Shown piece by piece: positions 17,677 to 38,900 of a stretch of DNA of 64,000 nucleotides; position 1 is the stretch's first letter, and each line of letters opens with the position of its first letter. Source of the DNA: Raja brachyura (taxonomy: Eukaryota); contig OY740802.1 in assembly GCA_963514005.1 (NCBI GenBank), forward strand, positions 27,590,001 to 27,654,000, read 5' to 3'. Position numbers and translations under genes: made by a program. The notes under the pieces were generated by a model that was not told where the DNA came from, did not search any database, and saw nothing but the letters and a program-made list of their open reading frames with translations.

Positions 17677-17837
17677 CCGATGGAGTGCTCAAAGCGGTTG
17701 TGGGAAGCCCCAGGGTAGACGAAGTAGGCCCCTCCGAGCTGCTTAATGAAGCGGAGTCTCTGGAACTGCGGGGTGTCGATGATGCGGACGAGCAGTGGGT
17801 GCATCTCAATATGGCCATGAATCGGATCGTTGAACAC
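17677..17837 (-). CDS. SAMHD1: SAMHD1 exon 4 ([54 protein letters not shown])
   Basis: Near-identical to the SAMHD1 HD-domain start; cag/gtaagg boundaries; 161 nt. Confidence 0.97.
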
Positions 17838-19284: not shown

Positions 19285-19354
19285 CTTTGCGTCAATAGGG
19301 TTCTGCCAGAGTGTATTAATGCACTTGATCAGTTTTAATCGGTCTCCCAGGACT
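19285..19354 (-). CDS. SAMHD1: SAMHD1 exon 3 (RVLGDRLKLIKCINTLWQNPIDAK)
   Basis: atatag acceptor, gtaaga donor, 70 nt, phase 2 to 0; LG.R.KL SAM-domain end motif. Confidence 0.9.
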
Positions 19355-21064: not shown

Positions 21065-21590
21065 TCTGATGGAGGAGCTGCACCTCATGTTTCACTTGAG
21101 CAACTTACCACACAGCAATATAAATATTGACTCCTCTAGTTTCAAGCAACCCTTGCTTTCCTTTTCCGACCAATCTGACTGTCCTGATTAAATTTTATGT
21201 AGGAAGGAACTGCAGATGCTGGTTTAAACCGAAGACCGACACACAAAGCTGGAGTAACTCAGCGGGACAGGCAGCAACTCTGCAGAGAGGGAATGGGTGA
21301 CGTTTCAGGTCGAGACATTAAATTTTATCTTTGTATATGCTTTGTCATCTTTCCCTAGCTAACAATGATCTTTTCTACATTTTCCATGAACTTCATCCCC
21401 TTTGATGTCTCATTTTCACACCTTACCCTTCCATATCCGTCTCCCCCTCTCTCCTGACTATGTCTGAAGAAGGGTATCTACCCGAAACGTCACACATTCC
21501 TTCTTATCCATGCTGCCTGTCCCACTGAGTAACTCCAGCTTTTTGTATCTATCTTCGGTGTAAACCGGCATCTGCAGTTCCTTCCTACAC
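21065..21590 (+). mobile_element. Penelope-like 3' fragment with a hammerhead-like motif (21464-21491) and a nested inverted mini-copy
   Basis: MEELHLMFHLSNL...IDSSSFK-like remnant; attaaattttat is duplicated around the nested copy. Confidence 0.75.
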
Positions 21591-21643
21591 TTTCGGGAAC
21601 CTCTTTGCTGTTCCCAAAGGCCTGAACCAAAAGTTTTGCTTAC

Positions 21644-21710
21644 CTTACACCTGTCTTTTTTAAATCACGTTCTGTCAACATTGGCAAGACATCGCCCGAA
21701 AGCTGTGCAG
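21644..21710 (-). CDS. SAMHD1: SAMHD1 exon 2 (AAQLSGDVLPMLTERDLKKTGV; SAM domain)
   Basis: ctctcattag acceptor, gtaagc donor, 67 nt, phase 1 to 2; SAM-like G..L..L.E..L...GV pattern. Confidence 0.88.
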
Positions 21711-21873
21711 CTAATGAGAGGATTTACAGAAAAATGGAAGTGAAAGCAATATCCAAATAAGAATCATGTCCATGACACATTACCCAGGCAAATATTGCAA
21801 ACACCCTGTTGATTAGTGTGGTTAGCAAGGAGGACATTACATTTTCAAAACTGAGAATTTAGGCATTACATTT

Positions 21874-22530
21874 TTCTTTTGTTAATTTTTTTTATTAATT
21901 AGAAGCAACTACATAATAAAAAGCAGTTTGTTCGTTGTCGACATAATTAAAAGCATTTTCTTCGTTGTAGGCATACATTATCAGTATTATTTATATTAAC
22001 AATTGCATAATAATTGTACTTCTATATATTTTTTTTTTCCATTTTTATAAAGATAGAAATTAATAGAGAAAGGTTAAACAAAAAAAGGATAAAAAGTTAA
22101 GAATGGAATGTTCTATAGATTATGCATCGTTTGAGATATATCTGCGTTTTATGAAATGTACTTCTTCATCTATTCTTTGATTCAGGTTTCAGTCAGGTTC
22201 TCGTGCCGAACCAGTTTGCCCCTTCAAATATTCAATAAATGTGGACCATATTATTTTAAATAGTTCTTGTTTGTCCATTAAGACAAATCTTAATCTTTCC
22301 AAATATAGGGTCTCCGACATTTCTGTAGTCCACATTTTGATTGTGGGAGTTATAGGGCCTTTCCAAAATTGTAATATTAATTTTTCCCCAATTATTAAAC
22401 TATAATCAATAAAAGTTCTTTGATTCGAAGTAATGAGTTGATTTTGTTCTGTTATTCCTAATATTATTAATTTTGAGTCAGGGACCAGTTTGGTATTGAC
22501 GGCTTCTGAAATTATCTTAAAAATTTCCAT
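21874..22530 (-). mobile_element. 5'-truncated L1/Tx1-type LINE (ORF2 C-terminus, 3' UTR, AATAAA and A-rich tail) with a ~178-bp flanking direct repeat
   Basis: ORF 22189-22530 has the L1 ORF2 C-terminal pattern (ILQFWK..P....W..E....LE.....F...W..F..YL). AATAAA at 21896-21891 followed by an A-rich tail. Direct repeats at 21696-21873 and 22531-22910. Confidence 0.85.
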
Positions 22531-22690
22531 CCGAAAGCTGTGCAGCTAATGAGAGTATTTACAGGAAAATGAAAGTGAAAGCAATATCCAAAAAAGAATT
22601 GTAAAAGAAGGAACTGCAGATGCTGGAGAATCGAGGGTACACAAAAAGCTGGAGAAACTCAGCGGGTGCAGCAGCATCTAAGGAGCGAAG

Positions 22691-22727
22691 AAGGTCTGAA
22701 GAAGGGTCTCGACCCGAAACGTCGCCT
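22691..22727 (+). ncRNA. Minimal hammerhead-ribozyme motif (best-preserved example of a dispersed Penelope-associated family)
   Basis: aggt-CTGAAGA-A-GGGTC-tc-GACCC-GAAAC-GTC-gcct: conserved core, 5-bp helix II, minimal helix III, helix I aggu/gccu. Activity is untested. Confidence 0.65.
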
Positions 22728-23564
22728 ATCTCCTTCGCTCCTTAGATGCTGCTGCACCCGCTGAGTTTCTCCAGCTTTTTGTGTACCATCCAAGTAAGAA
22801 TCATGACCATGACACATAGCCCAGGCAAATATTACAAACACCCTGTTGATTAGTGTGGATAGCATGGAGGACATTACATTTTCAAAACTGAGAATTTAGG
22901 CGTTAAATTTAATGGTAAACTTTTCAACCTATATCTCCAGTTCTGAAGGTACACAAAATGCTGGAGAAACTCAGAGGGTGCAGCAGCATCTAAGGAGCGA
23001 AGGAGATAGGCAACGTTTCGGGCCGAAACCCTTCTTCAGACCCTTTCTCCAGTTCTGAAACCCGGTAGTAAACCATGTGTTACCGTGGCGACGCCGTTTC
23101 GGCAGCACACACACCGAGTGCGTTGAACATGTCACTAATATTAGACTCGCCACATTTAATATCGAGGCTTTTGATGAAAATGAAAGGTGTCCCGGAATGA
23201 TCAAAGGGGCGAGAAAAGTCTGAGTGCCCCGCCGTGGCATTCCCAAACACAAGATCATTAATACCAACAAACGTGCAAGGCATTGCACCGAAACGATAAA
23301 TGATGTTTCCAAGTGCTTGCTTCCCTGCTTGCCTTTGCCATGTGTTTGAACTCTTCCGATGAAAATTGCAGGGAAAGGTTGGGATATACAGCAATAACAA
23401 GGAACTGCGGATGCTGGTTTATACCAAAGATAGACAACAAAGTCAGACAGCATCACTGGAGAACATAGATAGACCAGTCCAGCTTCCCCCCCCCCCCCCC
23501 CGCCCCCCCAAAAAAGCCGGCACGGGTGGGAAGGGTTTGCACGATTCTCTGGTTCCATACTTGC

Positions 23565-23736
23565 CTCTAAATAGCTGCTCGAACTTTCCCAAGCCTTGCA
23601 CCCGCAGGAAGAGGCAAACATCCTCTACGGCCCATTCCAGGTAATTCGATTTATTCGGCTGCAAAACTCCCCGCTTGGGGCTGCCTCTGTCAGGGCTGAA
23701 GGATCTCCGTCTCTTGCTGCTTTCGCCCAGGTTCAT
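23565..23736 (-). CDS. SAMHD1: SAMHD1 coding exon 1 (MNLGESSKRRR...WAVEDVCLFLRVQGLGKFEQLFR; NLS-like KRRR and start of the SAM domain)
   Basis: ATG at 23736; 57 codons plus 1 nt. It resembles human exon 1 (KRPR NLS, W..EQVC.FLR). It ends at a GC donor (AG|GCAAGT) in phase 1, the phase exon 2 requires. Confidence 0.88.
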
Positions 23737-31939: not shown

Positions 31940-32479
31940 CCATCGAACTTTCCGAAAAAGGCCAAACTATGTTCCTGGATAAATACCAGAAGGCAAGAAA
32001 CAAGTCATGGAAACAGGTTCGCAATCAATTGAAAACCAGAGGGAACTCATGAAATCAGATAAGAATGATAACAAAGTACAATCTAATCTGGATCAATTGA
32101 TGAACCTCTGTCATGAGGTCGGGGATAACCACAACTTAATACTGGGGTTACCACTGCATGAGAAGAACAAGAAAGGCAAAATTAGTAGTTTCAAGAGAAA
32201 ACTGAATTTTTCTATGGTATCGTAGAAAACGTGAAGTGGTTATCTGAAATTGGACCACAAACTACGTGCTCTACAGTGGGAAGAGCTATGCAACAAAGTG
32301 TTGTAACTACAGAAGAAATTAGACCTGAAGACAGGGTCTCAAATGTTCTGTAGCCAGTGCATCTTCAAGGGTCTCTGCTCATATGGAAGTTGGTAGATTT
32401 AGCTGTTCTCTCGCAACAAGCTGTCGCCTTGAAGAAAAAGCATGCGATTGAAGCACAGGATGAACACTTGAGACGAGAG

Positions 32480-32600
32480 GAGAAACAGATGAAGAGAAAG
32501 GAAGAACAGATGAAGAGAGAGGCTGAGGCACATGTGGAACAGATGAAGAGAAAGGCTGAGGCACGTAGAGAACAGATGAAGAGAGAGGCTGAGGAACGAA
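32480..32600 (+). repeat. 33-bp tandem repeat in the BEL gag coding EQMKREAEA-like units
   Basis: gaacagatgaagag occurs repeatedly at 33-bp spacing. Confidence 0.8.
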
Positions 32601-35600
32601 GGGGGCTGTTGAAAAGAGAGAAGGAACAGTGGAACTAGATACGAAGTTGGCAGTGGCCAGGACGAGGATGGATATATTTGAGGGCCAAGGTTCAAGATCA
32701 GCTCGAGAGTATCTCAGAAGAAGAGTTCCTTAGTCGAAGAAGGTGAGTATAGGTACGCAGAACACTGTTAACACTACTCCCTCTGTGCCCAATGAAGGAT
32801 TTCAACGTGAATTCTGTGACTTGATGAAGAACCAAAATGAAATTACTAAGCTCAACAAAATATCTCTTCTTCCTTGCCTCCAAGAGAAATTCCTGTTTTT
32901 GCCAGCGATCCTTTGCAGTATGAAGCTTTCGTTATAGCATTTGAGGGAGTGGAAAGAAAAACTACTAATGGGAAAGATTGCTTGCACTTTTTGGAGCAAA
33001 ACACAAGCGGATATTCAAAGCAACCTGTTCACAGTTACTGACATTTGCCTTCAGCTGTGGGCTATCAAAGGGAAAGAAATGCGCTTAAAGAGCATTTTGG
33101 TAACAAACACAAGATTGCTAATGCATACAAGAAAAAGGCCTTTGTTTGGTCAGTTATCAAGGCAGAGGATGTGAAGGCATTGCATGAGTTTTCGATGTTT
33201 CTTAGAGGATGTTGCAACGCAATGGAAAATCTCAACCATATGGAATAAATCAATGTTGCTGCTATTATGAAGACTACCCTTCTAAAATTGCCCTAAATGC
33301 TTAGAGTAAAGTGGAGGGATAGGGCAGGTCAGATATGGGAAAACCATAGCGGTGGAGCCAAGTTTCCTGACCTGGTGAATTTCATGAAGTACAAAGTTCT
33401 GTTTTGCGCAGAAAGCTTGATGAAAAGACTGAACATTACAGAACAAAAGACGAGGATTCTCCTGCGTGCCATAAATGAAGAGAAGTCTATATCTAGTCAT
33501 CATATCATAGGTTTGGAAATATCTAGTCTGGATAAAGACAATTTTATACAACTATCTGATGTGTTTACACATAAGACCATGCCTATTTCTCATCTAAACA
33601 TACCCAAGCAGGAAGACATGAGACAATGGCCTTACTTGAAGAATATCAAGATTCCTAAAATAGAATCTGACATCAACCTACTCATCGGAAGAAATGCTTC
33701 GAAGGTATTGGAGCCTAGAGAGTTGGTTAACAGTCAAGGGGACGGACCATTTGCTGCGAGGACCCTACTCGGATGGGTTATTTATGGTCCCTTGAGAAGG
33801 AACAACAAAAGCAGGGATGAGAATAACTACCCTGCTGCTGCTGCTGTCAATCGAATATATACCGTAAATTTAGAGGAGATACTGATCAAGCAATACAATC
33901 ACGACTTCAATGTAAGAACCAGCAGGGAATCAGATGAGATGTGCGGAGAAGATGTAAAGTTCTTGGATATTATGAAACACTCAGTGAAGATGATAGATAG
34001 ACACTATTGTCTAGGCTTACCTTTCAAACAAGTGTTAGTCTGCCGAATAACCGTTGCATTGCTGAGCAGCGCATTCAGAACCTGAAACGCAGGTTTGGCA
34101 AGAATAAGAAATTTCATGATGAATATAAATCTTTCTCAAAAAAAAAGATTGACATTGATTATGCTGAAATGGTACCAGTGGACCAGCTGAATTGAAGTGA
34201 TGGAGAGCTCTGATACATCCCCCACCATGGGATGTATCACTCAAGGAAATGGACTTTGAGGGTGATCTTTAACCGTGGGGCAGTCTTCAAAGGAACATCA
34301 CTTAACTGTCAACTGCTGCAGGGTCCAGACCTTACCAACTCACTCATTCGAGTTCTCATCAGACAAGATTCAGACAAGAACCGGTTGCTTTGATGGCTGA
34401 TATTAAAGCAATCTTTCATCGTCAAAGTATCAGAAAAGCATATTGACTATCTGCTATTCCTGTGGTGGACTGAGGGTGATGCACAGCAAGATCTTGTTGA
34501 ATACTGGATGAAGGTACATTCCTTTGGAGCAGTGTCATCACCAAGTTGTGCAAACTTTGCATTAAGGAAGACTGCTGAGGAAAACAAAGCTCACTTTCCA
34601 GAAGAGGTGACAAATACAGTAAAAGACAACTTCTATGTGGATGATTGGTTAAAATCCATGTGTTCAGAACCAGAAAATTCAAATGGTAGCATACCTGACT
34701 TCCTTCTGCCAAAAGGGAGGATTCATGCTATCGAAGTGGATCAGCAACAGCCGTGCTGTATTGGAAACCATTCCACCAGATAACAGAGCCAAGGAGACCA
34801 GGGAATTGGATTTGGACAAAGACAATCTTCCTATGGAAAGAGCACTGGGATTGCATTGGTGTGTTGAAATAGATGTGTTCAAGTTCAGAATCTTGATTCA
34901 GGAGTGACCATATACTAGACTGGCCATCCTATCCATGGTTGGTTCTGTATACGACCCTTTGGGATTTCTTGCACCATTTACTCTGCCGGTCAAGTTGATT
35001 ATGCAAGAGCTCTGTAAGAAAAAACTTGGATGGGATGAGAGTATAACGCAAACCTTCTCTCAGCGATGGCAGAGTGGTTAGCAGATCTCGACAAGATATC
35101 AGAATTCAAAGTGGACCGTTGCATGAAGTCTGCAAACTTTGGCCAAATCAGATATGCACAACTGCACCACTTTTCAGACTCAAGTGAAAGTGGTTATGGT
35201 ACTGTTTCATATCTAATACTGGAAAATGATAACAAAGAAGTACATGTTGCATTTGTAATGGGAAAAGCCAGAGTGGCACCATTAAAGCAAATGACGATTC
35301 CCAGATTGGAGCTTACAGTGTTTGCTGTCCGAATTGAATGGAATTATAGCTTTAGCTGGAGAAATCCATCTTCTGGACTGATAGCACAATAGTGCTTAAG
35401 TACATTCAAAAATGAAAACAAACGCTTTCTGGGGTCTGAAGAAGGGTTTTGGGCCTATCTCCTTCGCTCCTTAGATGCTGCTGCACCCGCTGAGTTACTC
35501 CAGCCTTTTGTGTACCCTCGCTTTCAAACATTTGTAGCAAACAGAATCTCTTATGTAAGAGGTGCTACTAATGTATCACAGTGGAGATACGTTAACACAA

Positions 35601-35606
35601 AGGTAA

Positions 35607-35992
35607 ATATAGAAACATAGAAATTAGGTGCAGGAGTAGGCCATTCGGCCCTTCGAGCCTGCACCGCCATTCAATATGATCATGGCTGATCATCCAACTC
35701 AGTATCCCGTACCTGCCTTCTCTCCATACCCTCTGATCCCCTTAGCCACAAGGGCCACATCTAACTCCCTCTTAAATATAGCCAATGAACTGGCCTCAAC
35801 TACCCTCTGTGGCAGAGAGTTCCAGAGACCCACCACTCTCTGTGTGAAAAACGTCCTTCTCATCTCGGTCCTAAAGGATTTCCCCCTTATCCTTAAGCTG
35901 TGACCCCTTGTCCTGGACCACCCCAACATCGGGAACAATCTTCCTGCATCTAGCCTGTCCAACCCCTTAAGAATTTTGTAAATTTCTATAAG
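35607..35992 (-). mobile_element. CR1 3' fragment inserted in the BEL element
   Basis: LIEIYKILKGLDRLD...FFTQRVVGLWNSLPQ; atagaaac-type tail. Confidence 0.9.
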
Positions 35993-38900
35993 ACCTAAAT
36001 CCTGCGGACGAAGCCTCTGGAGGACAAATAGCACACCGCTTGTTAAGCAATAACAGATGGATCATGGGAACGGAATTTTTCTGTAAGCCAGACAGAGAAT
36101 GCCCAAAGCTTAACCTGGAAATTTTAGCTAATGATCCAGAAATTAAGCAAGACATCACAGTGAATGTTATTGTCGAGGATCCATTAGACCCAACAAACCA
36201 TTTAATTACCCATTTCTCATCAGAATCTGAAGACTGTGGTGGCTTGGTTTCTTAAACTAAGGACAATGTTCTTGCTGTTGGCTCGAAAAAGAAAGGAGAT
36301 TGCTGAAAGTATCTTTGAAAATGATCCTGGCGAACTAGAGGAAAAGGTTGATTAAAAAATGCAAGTCTTTAAAGCATCTTATCGTGGACAATGTTTATGT
36401 CCTGATGATCTTCTCCAGGCAGAAAACGCTGTTATCTCTTTCTGTCAAAGACAAAAATTCAAAGAAGATTTATCAACATTAGAAGCTGATGTAGATGGTG
36501 TTAAAAGAAGCAGTCATTTGTACAAGCTAGATGCCTGAAGAGGCTAAGCATCCTATTATTCTCTCGAAGGATTTTCACATTTCTCCACTACTGTTACGAC
36601 ATATTCATGAACAGCTTGGACATGGAGGAAGAAATTATATGCTGTCGAAACTTCGTAAAAAATACTGGATTATCAAAGCTAACTCTACTGCAAAAAAGGT
36701 CATAAAAGATTGTTTTAGGTGTAGACGACAGCGTGGACGAGTTGGAGAACATAAAATGGCAGACTTACCTCTGGAGAAGAGGATTCTACCTGATAAGTCT
36801 CCATTTACGGATGTAGGAGCAGACTACTTCAGTCCTATAGAGGTCAAGAGAGACAAAGTCTTGTAAAAAGCTACGGTGTAATCTTCACTTGCCTGGCAAG
36901 CAAAGCAGTACATCTTGAAGTTGCATCTACACTTGCACAGACTCCTGCATTCATGCATTACAAAGATTCATCTGTCGATGAGGTCATGTTTAATCTTTAA
37001 GATCAGATAATAGTACAAATTTTAGTATAATGGACACGAGAATACTTGCCTCTAATCCAAGAACGACAAAGATGGTCTATGGTTAGAATAAATTTTATTC
37101 CATTTGATATCGTTTTGGTGGTTGATTCAACAACACCACGAGGTTCCTGGCTGATGGGCAGAATATTGAATGAATGAGTTTATTGGCCAAGTATATTCAC
37201 ATACAAGGAATTTGCCTGGTGCTCCACCCACTAGAGACAACATGACATACAATGACAGTTAGGAATGACACATAAAACATTAAACATTAATAATAAAATA
37301 TTCTCGATTAAACATGTGAAATAAATAAAATACAAGAGCAAAAGGAGGCTACAGACTTTTGGTTATTGAGCACAGGTACTACTCGAGGGAAAAAAAGCTG
37401 TTTTTATGTCTGGCTGTGGCTGGTTTGACAGTCCGGAGTCACCTTCCAGAGGGAAGTGATTCAAAGAGTTTGTGGCCAGGGTGAGAGGGGTCAGAAATGG
37501 TCTTAGCCGCTCACTTCCTGGCCCTTGCAGTGTACAGTTCGTCAATGGAGGGAAGGTTGCAGCCAATAACCTTCTCAACTGATCGGACAATTCGCTGCAG
37601 CCTCCGGATATTAGAGATCATACTAGAGATAATATTGGAGAGCATACCAGACGCTAAAGGTTTGGTGCATACAGTACGACTTCAGACTAAGAACATCTTG
37701 GTAAGACCGATAACCAAGATATGTCTGCTCCTAAAAGCCGAAGAAGAAGATTAAAAAATCGCTAAAGAAGTTTGTATGCTTACATATAGTGCATATTTCT
37801 TTTGTTTTTTGATATATGTTAAGCTTTTATAGCTCCTTTTAGTCTATTGGTAATTGCTTCGTTTATGCATAGAACAATTAGGGGTCGGTATGTAGGAGCC
37901 ATTTATGCTTAAGTTAGTTACTGTTAATATATTATAGCCATGTCTAGATATTTTCTTTTTTGTTATGCTTGTGGGTGGGATTTGATACGTAGAAGGGGGT
38001 GTCTACATCTGAGGAGGCTAGCGTAGCCACAGAGATTGGGAGTCAGTTTAGCCTCGAGGGATGGTTGAGACAACAGTTTTTACCACACTCTCACACGACT
38101 CTATATGACATGACACGGATGAAACAGTTAGTAAGAATGAAAAGTTACAATTTGTATTGGAATAAGAAATACTGAATATGAATCATTTCTTTGTTTGTAC
38201 TACTTCAATAAAAGACCAATTAATCGAGAAACGATTGGAAGATTCATTTTTGTTATCTGCGAGAGCATAAGCTATATCTCTTTTACATCCCCGAGTAGTA
38301 ATGGCAATCAAAAGTTGGACATTGGAAAGTTAAGAAATTGCCATCACACTACGTTTCATGTGAACAAAAAGGTTCTCATTGACCCAGATAAAGTCCACTA
38401 TGTTTAATTCCCACTAACTCACTTATCTCAAACCAATAAACTTGCAGCTAGGGCTCTGTCAAAGTCAGGAATGGTTTGTTTAAACTTTGCCCTTACAGCT
38501 TATTTGTTTCTATCTCTTCTGCTTTGCATGATCCATAATTTGCAAAATTTGCAATTTGCACAATGTTTGTGCCGAACATGATGTCAAGTTAAACTGATCT
38601 TATCAGCCAAAATATGATCGATGTTTCCCTATTCCCTGCATTTCCATGTACCTATCTAAAAGTTAAACGACACTATCGTATCAGCCTCCACCACATCTGG
38701 CAATGAGTTCCAGACCCCACCACTCTCTGTGTTAAAATAACTTAAAATAATCATAGAGTTATACCGCACGGAAACAGGGCTTTGGCCGAACGCGCATGCC
38801 GAATATGCCCTGTCTATCTATGCTAGTCCTACCTGCCCACATTTGGCACAGATCCTTCTAAATCTATAGAGAAAGATTTCTATGATCTAGAGTTTTTAAA

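Follow-up and report, generated by a model that had tools for sequence, protein, structure and literature searches.

A likely 178-bp target-site duplication of a truncated L1 element carries a second copy of the exon-2 acceptor of a skate SAMHD1 gene

Results

SAMHD1 gene A belongs to a cluster of paralogues

The window, a 64,000-nt stretch of Raja brachyura contig OY740802.1 (positions 27,590,001 to 27,654,000), carries a SAMHD1 gene on its minus strand, hereafter gene A. Its exon 4 (17677–17837), in which the HD domain begins, matches SAMHD1 in the PDB (E = 1e-28), and nearly all of the highest-identity protein matches listed (94–98%) are shark and ray SAMHD1-like proteins, several per species. 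Mapping of skate proteins onto the genome delimited 16 exons that join into an open frame of 619 codons up to the first stop, with AG at 15/15 acceptors and GT at 14/15 donors, intron 1 being GC-AG. The coding part of exon 1 (172 nt, GC donor) lies at 23565–23736 and exon 3 at 19285–19354, the latter placed by protein mapping. Exon 2, which encodes the SAM domain and ends in a GT donor, occupies 67 nt at 21644–21710 and is supported both by protein mapping and by a spliced joint, 23565–21710, in RNA-like contigs. Two further full SAMHD1 exon sets are found downstream on the same contig (B at 27.47–27.53 Mb and C at 27.43–27.46 Mb), along with a partial 3' copy at 27.547–27.560 Mb; the complete reading-frame check covered gene A, and paralogues B and C are known as full exon sets.

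Some features of the cluster are recorded here in their own right. The GC donor of intron 1 (23563–23564) is common to all three paralogues and is used in RNA-like contigs. Two database models (P0028 and P0032) end exon 1 early and omit exon 2, possibly as an annotation artefact of this GC donor. Genes A and B differ at 16/67 nt of exon 2, where 11 of the 12 changed codons are non-synonymous, compared with 7/161 nt of exon 4 (p = 3e-5 against exon 2) and 14/108 nt of the intron adjoining exon 2 (p = 0.07 against exon 2); relatives also vary at the amino-acid-changing exon 2 sites 21660 and 21661. This divergence suggests diversifying selection, with gene conversion as an alternative. Elsewhere in the window, six-frame translation revealed broken reading frames at about 32350–36250, which we take to be like the polyprotein of a BEL/Pao-type LTR retrotransposon.

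A truncated L1 in intron 1 is flanked by a 178-bp direct repeat

Intron 1 of gene A contains a 5'-truncated L1 of 657 nt (21874–22530, minus strand), recognizable by the C-terminus of ORF2, a 3' UTR and an A-tail. A preliminary description of this DNA had proposed that the element, lying in the sense of SAMHD1, is flanked by a repeat of 21696–21873 at 22531–22910, the second copy having been split later. Both points hold, and all the coordinates proved correct: 21751–21873 aligns with 22788–22910 (123 nt, 93%) and 21696–21764 with 22531–22599 (69 nt, 94%). Since these two pieces overlap by a 14-nt duplication around a 188-nt insert at 22600–22787, the repeat unit is 178 bp, with 12 differences between the copies. 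The copies directly adjoin both ends of the L1. A search of the same genome with the unit returned four matches, namely the parts of both copies and one 84% match in a paralogue, which rules out a chance repeat; the unit itself occurs in two copies only.

The downstream copy (21696–21873, minus strand) holds the real exon-2 acceptor. The upstream copy consists of a first part of 123 nt (22788–22910, minus strand) and a second part (22531–22599, minus strand) that carries a decoy acceptor and, as described earlier, the first 15 nt of exon 2; the first exonic base of the decoy is 22545, and the 15 exonic bases are identical between copies. Splicing to the decoy would reach a stop after 66 codons and then the AATAAA of the L1 (21891–21896, minus strand), the sole such signal in intron 1, again in line with the early stop and poly(A) signal previously reported. 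At its other end the repeat terminates at TT|AAAT in the L1 sense (22911|22910), which has the character of an L1-endonuclease nick, as had been suggested, and agrees with nick contexts in the family. In the ancestral single copy this putative nick would have lain 163 nt before exon 2.

The element is a non-LTR retrotransposon of the L1 clade, the domain evidence coming from its full-length relatives and not from the truncated copy. A similarity search with this L1 gave 5730 first-look candidates, the best other copy being 95% identical. Full-length family copies (L109 and L115) have Pfam Exo_endo_phos and RVT_1 domains, corresponding to an APE endonuclease and a reverse transcriptase. Full-length members match human LINE-1 ORF2p (E = 4.8e-56), and human LINE-1 ORF1p provides the best, albeit weak, PDB matches for their ORF1 (E = 0.0027). 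No Pfam match was obtained for ORF1 of the full-length copies or for the truncated fragment in SAMHD1, and a PDB search with an ORF2 C-terminal piece was likewise negative. The family is further characterized by a 3' poly(A) signal, an A-tail, TT|AAAA-like targets and short target-site duplications (TSDs) in most copies that have a TSD.

The 188-nt nested insert (22600–22787) is bounded by a 14-nt TSD of its own and contains fold-back arms and a core that resembles a hammerhead, CTGAnGA...GAAA, which we take to be of the minimal type. An Rfam search with the insert gave no hammerhead match and only sub-threshold hairpin matches. The insert matches (74%) a repeat just before a broken frame near 40.3 kb that is presumably GIY-YIG-like. 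Minimal hammerheads occur in fish Penelope-like elements (PMC4209133). Of the earlier reading as a Penelope mini-insertion, the insertion itself is confirmed, and its derivation from a Penelope element is plausible. The insert's repeat family has 73 matches in 204 kb, and the best-scoring AG of intron 1 lies within the insert at 22622 (11.4, compared with 3.4 for the real acceptor).

Junctions and a related genome point to a probable target-site duplication

In target-primed reverse transcription, the first nick marks both the 3' end of the L1 and the start of the TSD, and the repeat at this locus has that geometry. At the opposite junction, 33/41 family copies have TTTTGG just upstream of the truncation point where the target has TTTCGG, a microhomology of 2 nt exact and of 5 of 6 nt in all. 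The two copies of the repeat differ at 12/178 sites, against 11.9 expected if each had aged like the L1, which differs at 22/656 sites from the majority sequence of the 40 aligned relatives nearest to it; this clock is rough and the agreement carries little weight, with the other five long repeats described below differing by 3–5% and their elements by 4–8% from a broad majority.

The preliminary description had proposed looking for an empty site in related species, and DNA contigs of four relatives were inspected across the locus. In organism E (run X12), one 377-nt contig covers 21568–21841 and a piece of the same depth lies at 22924–22936. Depth is zero at 22807–22873, a gap that also occurs in runs X8 and X5 and is by itself not diagnostic, and again at 22132 and 22143 within the L1, two positions at which the DNA runs of the other three relatives reach thousands-fold depth. 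From a single copy running into the upstream flank together with the lack of L1 cover, judged from contig pieces and depths, organism E appears to have a single-copy empty site without the L1. Organism D (run X8), on the other hand, has the L1|decoy|insert junctions without differences, and organism A has depth on both 178-bp copies. Paralogue B was considered as an empty site and rejected, its homology stopping at 21818, short of the nick. Taken together, the nick, the microhomology, the exact abutment, the roughly matching age and the putative empty site support the earlier claim that the repeats are a long TSD of this L1, which we consider likely.

Long target-site duplications recur in this L1 family

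We surveyed TSDs across the family starting from 344 loci obtained by similarity searches and extensions, which reduced to 177 independent insertions. Twenty-five were dropped (20 lacking a complete 3' end, 3 whose 5' end lies too close to an edge and 2 with a short right flank), leaving 152 scored insertions, a sample of top matches rather than a random one, in which flanks of ~1.2–1.4 kb bound the visible TSD length. Six of these, including SAMHD1, have long TSDs (66, 117, ~149, 177, 178 and 267 bp), 57 have short ones, 4 lie in tandem arrays and 85 show no clear TSD. The short TSDs measure 11–22 bp with a mode of 15, and 25/57 are of 15–16 bp; as a null, 1/150 shuffled flank pairs reached the threshold. 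Besides SAMHD1, long TSDs account for 5/151 insertions (3.3%, 95% interval 1.1–7.6%) and those above 100 bp for 4/151. The five are L116 on C15 (177 bp), L366 on C16 (about 149 bp), L331 on C2 (117 bp), L362 on C1 (66 bp) and L311 on C4 (267 bp, with about 25 extra nt at the 5' junction). Each of their units occurs twice, only within its own locus and with 93–97% identity; it adjoins the tail on one side and, on the other, reaches the 5' end of the element or comes to within about 25 nt of it. The nick context is non-TT in 2/6 long cases, and the commonest context among short TSDs is TT|AAAA (6/57). Overall, long TSDs have arisen repeatedly, though in a small minority of insertions, for this L1 family in the genome studied, the empty-site evidence covering the SAMHD1 locus and the other five being read from the geometry of their repeats.

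A smaller first survey of 43 copies had contained no long TSD. Several candidates were set aside: L065, L236, L308 and L327 are insertions in tandem arrays and were left out of the count, and L226, L318 and L324 had been flagged but proved to have unrelated repeats on both flanks. The lengths 177, ~149 and 178 bp had raised the idea of a nucleosome ladder, to which the range of 66–267 bp in the larger sample gives no support. The same L1 fragment recurs at regular spacing at C25:13.1–13.5 Mb (genome G000) and on C124 and C51, a pattern indicative of large tandem segmental arrays.

The exon-1 joint listed in RNA-like contigs leads to the real acceptor

Four contig runs were inspected for use of the decoy (X7, X16, X18 and X20, of which X18 and X20 have no cover of exon 2); that they are RNA is a guess, and contigs lose rare variants and show no RNA ends. 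In X7, from organism C, a contig spans the 3' junction of the L1, so the insertion is present there, and X7 has no cover at 22858–22870 of the upstream copy, the decoy of organism C thus not being seen base by base. The joint of exon 1 to the real acceptor (21710–23565) has a depth of 255.5 in this run, exon 1 a depth of 241.6, intronic contigs 14–38, and contigs of the L1 3' end that look locus-specific 13.7–14.2. The same joint is found in X16, from organism E. The exon 1 to 22545 junctions proposed in the preliminary description were sought, and none is present among the 15 joints listed of 67 in the RNA-like contigs. Beyond the junction, only the first 15 nt are common to the real and decoy products, and the X7 junction contig has 28 letters on its shorter side; as this exceeds the shared stretch, no fork at exon 2 +15 is retained in X7. 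The decoy is not a major form in the X7 sample, a result compatible with low-level use.

With splice-site matrices built from 17 acceptors and 14 donors of this cluster only, the real acceptor scored 3.4 and the decoy 2.0, both low, and at least five other AGs in intron 1 scored above both. The first donor-like site that scores in the range of the gene's own donors lies 569 nt after the decoy, whereas the real exon has its GT donor at 67 nt. A nearby donor for the real exon and none for the decoy fits exon definition, through which splicing likely stays on the real acceptor. Eight differences between the copies were polarized by paralogue B: the derived state belongs to the decoy copy at 3, one of which is in the pyrimidine tract, and to the real copy at 4, while 1 is unclear. 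The AG and the AATAAA of the decoy route are intact, an intact AG plus 15 nt being expected 56% of the time at this age. With 3 against 4 derived changes in such young copies, the decoy shows no sign of conservation, a comparison of little statistical power.

The predicted decoy product has 66 residues and lacks the HD domain. A transcript spliced to the decoy and ending at the L1 poly(A) site would stop in its terminal exon and would hence be no target of nonsense-mediated decay (NMD), so that NMD inhibition would probe only a variant spliced onward. The proposal that a poison or premature-poly(A) isoform tunes SAMHD1 is not supported by these observations: the displayed joint of exon 1 is only to the real acceptor, the decoy has no nearby donor and it has decayed like its twin. 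A regulatory role of the decoy is unlikely.

Discussion

We propose that the first nick, made by the L1 endonuclease, fell at TT|AAAT in intron 1, 163 nt short of exon 2, and that 657 nt were reverse-transcribed before synthesis ended. Opening of the second strand would have followed at a distance of 178 nt, at a point 15 nt into exon 2, and there 2–6 nt of microhomology may have caught the end of the cDNA. Fill-in would then have duplicated the interval, so that the exon stayed intact on the downstream side and an extra acceptor arose on the upstream side, and a small fold-back element would have inserted into the upstream copy later. The copied acceptor is probably a mostly unused by-product, and we regard this account as a whole as fairly probable. 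It departs from the preliminary description, according to which the gene survived only because the duplication rebuilt its acceptor. The nick is intronic, 163 nt upstream of the exon, so that an ordinary 15-bp stagger would have stayed within the intron and left the exon untouched, and two full-length paralogues lie downstream. The exon was reached by the distant second break alone, and as fill-in by definition restores both sides, the long stagger would have made a decoy and not a rescue. Similarly, the implied link to the role of SAMHD1 against L1 looks incidental, with thousands of family copies in the genome and long TSDs recurring elsewhere. SAMHD1 has been named among retrotransposon restriction factors (review, PMC4982230).

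The same product could arise without a distant second nick if the end of the L1 cDNA switched to the sense pre-mRNA while this was being made, or entered the DNA downstream through the microhomology, and the 178 nt up to the nick were then copied. The shared sense of L1 and host transcript and the microhomology at the 5' junction would suit such a switch, as would the about 25 extra nt at the 5' junction of L311, and sense-oriented L1 chimeras do arise by template switching (PMC13174262). From one sequence, a distant nick cannot be told apart from a template switch, as their products are identical; yet in 6/6 long cases the nick marks the exact end of the copied stretch and staggered breaks need no extra assumption, and we consider the template switch unlikely. 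Still less credible, and in our view extremely improbable, is an independent 178-bp tandem duplication with an L1 landing at its junction, or a pseudo-TSD from later rearrangement. The locus is indeed duplication-prone, with three paralogues and a partial copy, and pseudo-TSD models have been raised for long TSDs of HERV-K (PMC5488345, accessible portion), but organism E apparently has one copy and no L1, the abutment is exact at both ends with matching age, and five more cases share the geometry.

Regarding function, the decoy and the L1 poly(A) signal could serve as an alternative last exon, or as a poison exon, at the expense of full-length SAMHD1. Such an isoform has an intact AG with 15 exonic bases, a score close to that of a weak real acceptor, a stop after 66 codons with the intron's sole AATAAA downstream of the decoy, and L1|decoy|insert junctions that are without differences in organism D. 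Against this, the 15 displayed joints include only that to the real acceptor and no fork is retained, contigs of the L1 3' end reach 13.7–14.2 against 242–255 for exon 1, chance alone would leave the AG and 15 nt unchanged somewhat over half of the time, at least five other AGs of intron 1 outscore both acceptors, and SAMHD1 is present as three paralogues. We judge this isoform very unlikely, and prefer the reading of an inherited long TSD with a largely idle acceptor.

Long L1 TSDs have been described before; those of the skate are inherited and recur. In the accessible portions of the reports compared below, TSDs of engineered L1 exceeded 100 bp in no more than 10% of insertions in HeLa cells, compared with 4/151 other copies of the skate family, and in the majority of those in cells deficient in nucleotide excision repair (NER), and exon-sequence duplication and loss of L1 by recombination between long TSDs were predicted (Servant et al., PMC5223499). 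The skate case shares with those events the length above 100 bp, the endonuclease-type nick and the A-tail, but theirs were de novo in cultured cells, with a median of about 1.5 kb under NER deficiency, whereas the skate copies are inherited and several percent diverged. Endogenous L1 insertions with long TSDs (above 40 bp, one of 92 bp) and hallmarks of target-primed reverse transcription were reported by Upton et al. (PMC4398972); these were somatic, human and neuronal, and the polymorphic germline copies of that study had shorter TSDs. In human and chimpanzee, Kojima 2010 (PMC2912911) found a TSD peak at 14–16 bp, like the short TSDs of the skate family, and aberrant sites accompanying 5'-truncated copies; that survey took 5–30 bp only and left long in vivo TSDs open. 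HERV-K (HML-2) TSDs of 111 and 250 bp (Kahyo et al., PMC5488345) are likewise inherited and share the ambiguity between an empty and a recombined site, but HERV-K is an integrase-mediated LTR element and does not use target-primed reverse transcription. For zebrafish ZfL2-2 in chicken DT40 cells, 1/25 wild-type insertions was long (1228 bp), a similar rate, although for an engineered L2-clade element in cultured cells (Suzuki et al., PMC2666801). Finally, L1 and Alu insertions in NF1 (Wimmer et al., PMC3219598) are also L1-endonuclease insertions by acceptors at which splicing can change, but they are pathogenic, have TSDs of 6–17 bp and duplicate no whole acceptor region.

A literature search of titles and abstract openings, with few subscription journals, returned no report of long L1 TSDs in sharks or skates, and within the same scope none on a TSD duplicating an acceptor and none on expansion of SAMHD1 in cartilaginous fish; the accessible portions of 10.1101/522623, PMC13141329, PMC5932605 and PMC4408412 contain nothing on long TSDs. 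By what means L1 insertion opens the second strand is still an open question, and long TSDs have been treated largely as an outcome of cultured cells or repair deficiency. An inherited set allows their length distribution, context and half-life to be measured in a vertebrate genome. The SAMHD1 locus offers a natural example of the predicted exon-sequence duplication, and its two near-identical acceptors a natural experiment on acceptor choice. Regulation of SAMHD1 by the decoy would matter more if true, but has no support.

More speculatively, the skate germline L1 may regularly fix TSDs of 60–270 bp (about 3% of copies and 8% of those with a detectable TSD), which would amount to roughly a hundred or more genomic records of distant second-strand opening. 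The long repeats might also make insertions reversible: in at least one relative (organism B), recombination may have removed the L1-plus-decoy cassette, so that alleles with and without it would coexist in an antiviral gene that evolves fast. We offer this wider picture tentatively and think it somewhat unlikely in full. It touches on a 359-nt contig of run X5 from organism B (within 21576–22974), whose aligned part is identical to the downstream copy, derived bases included. The match stops exactly at the edge of a 36-nt run identical in both copies (21829–21864 and 22866–22901), and 106 letters remain, about the distance to contig ends in other runs, at a depth of 3.8. This pattern fits either an L1-free allele produced by recombination between the TSD copies or a chimeric low-depth contig.
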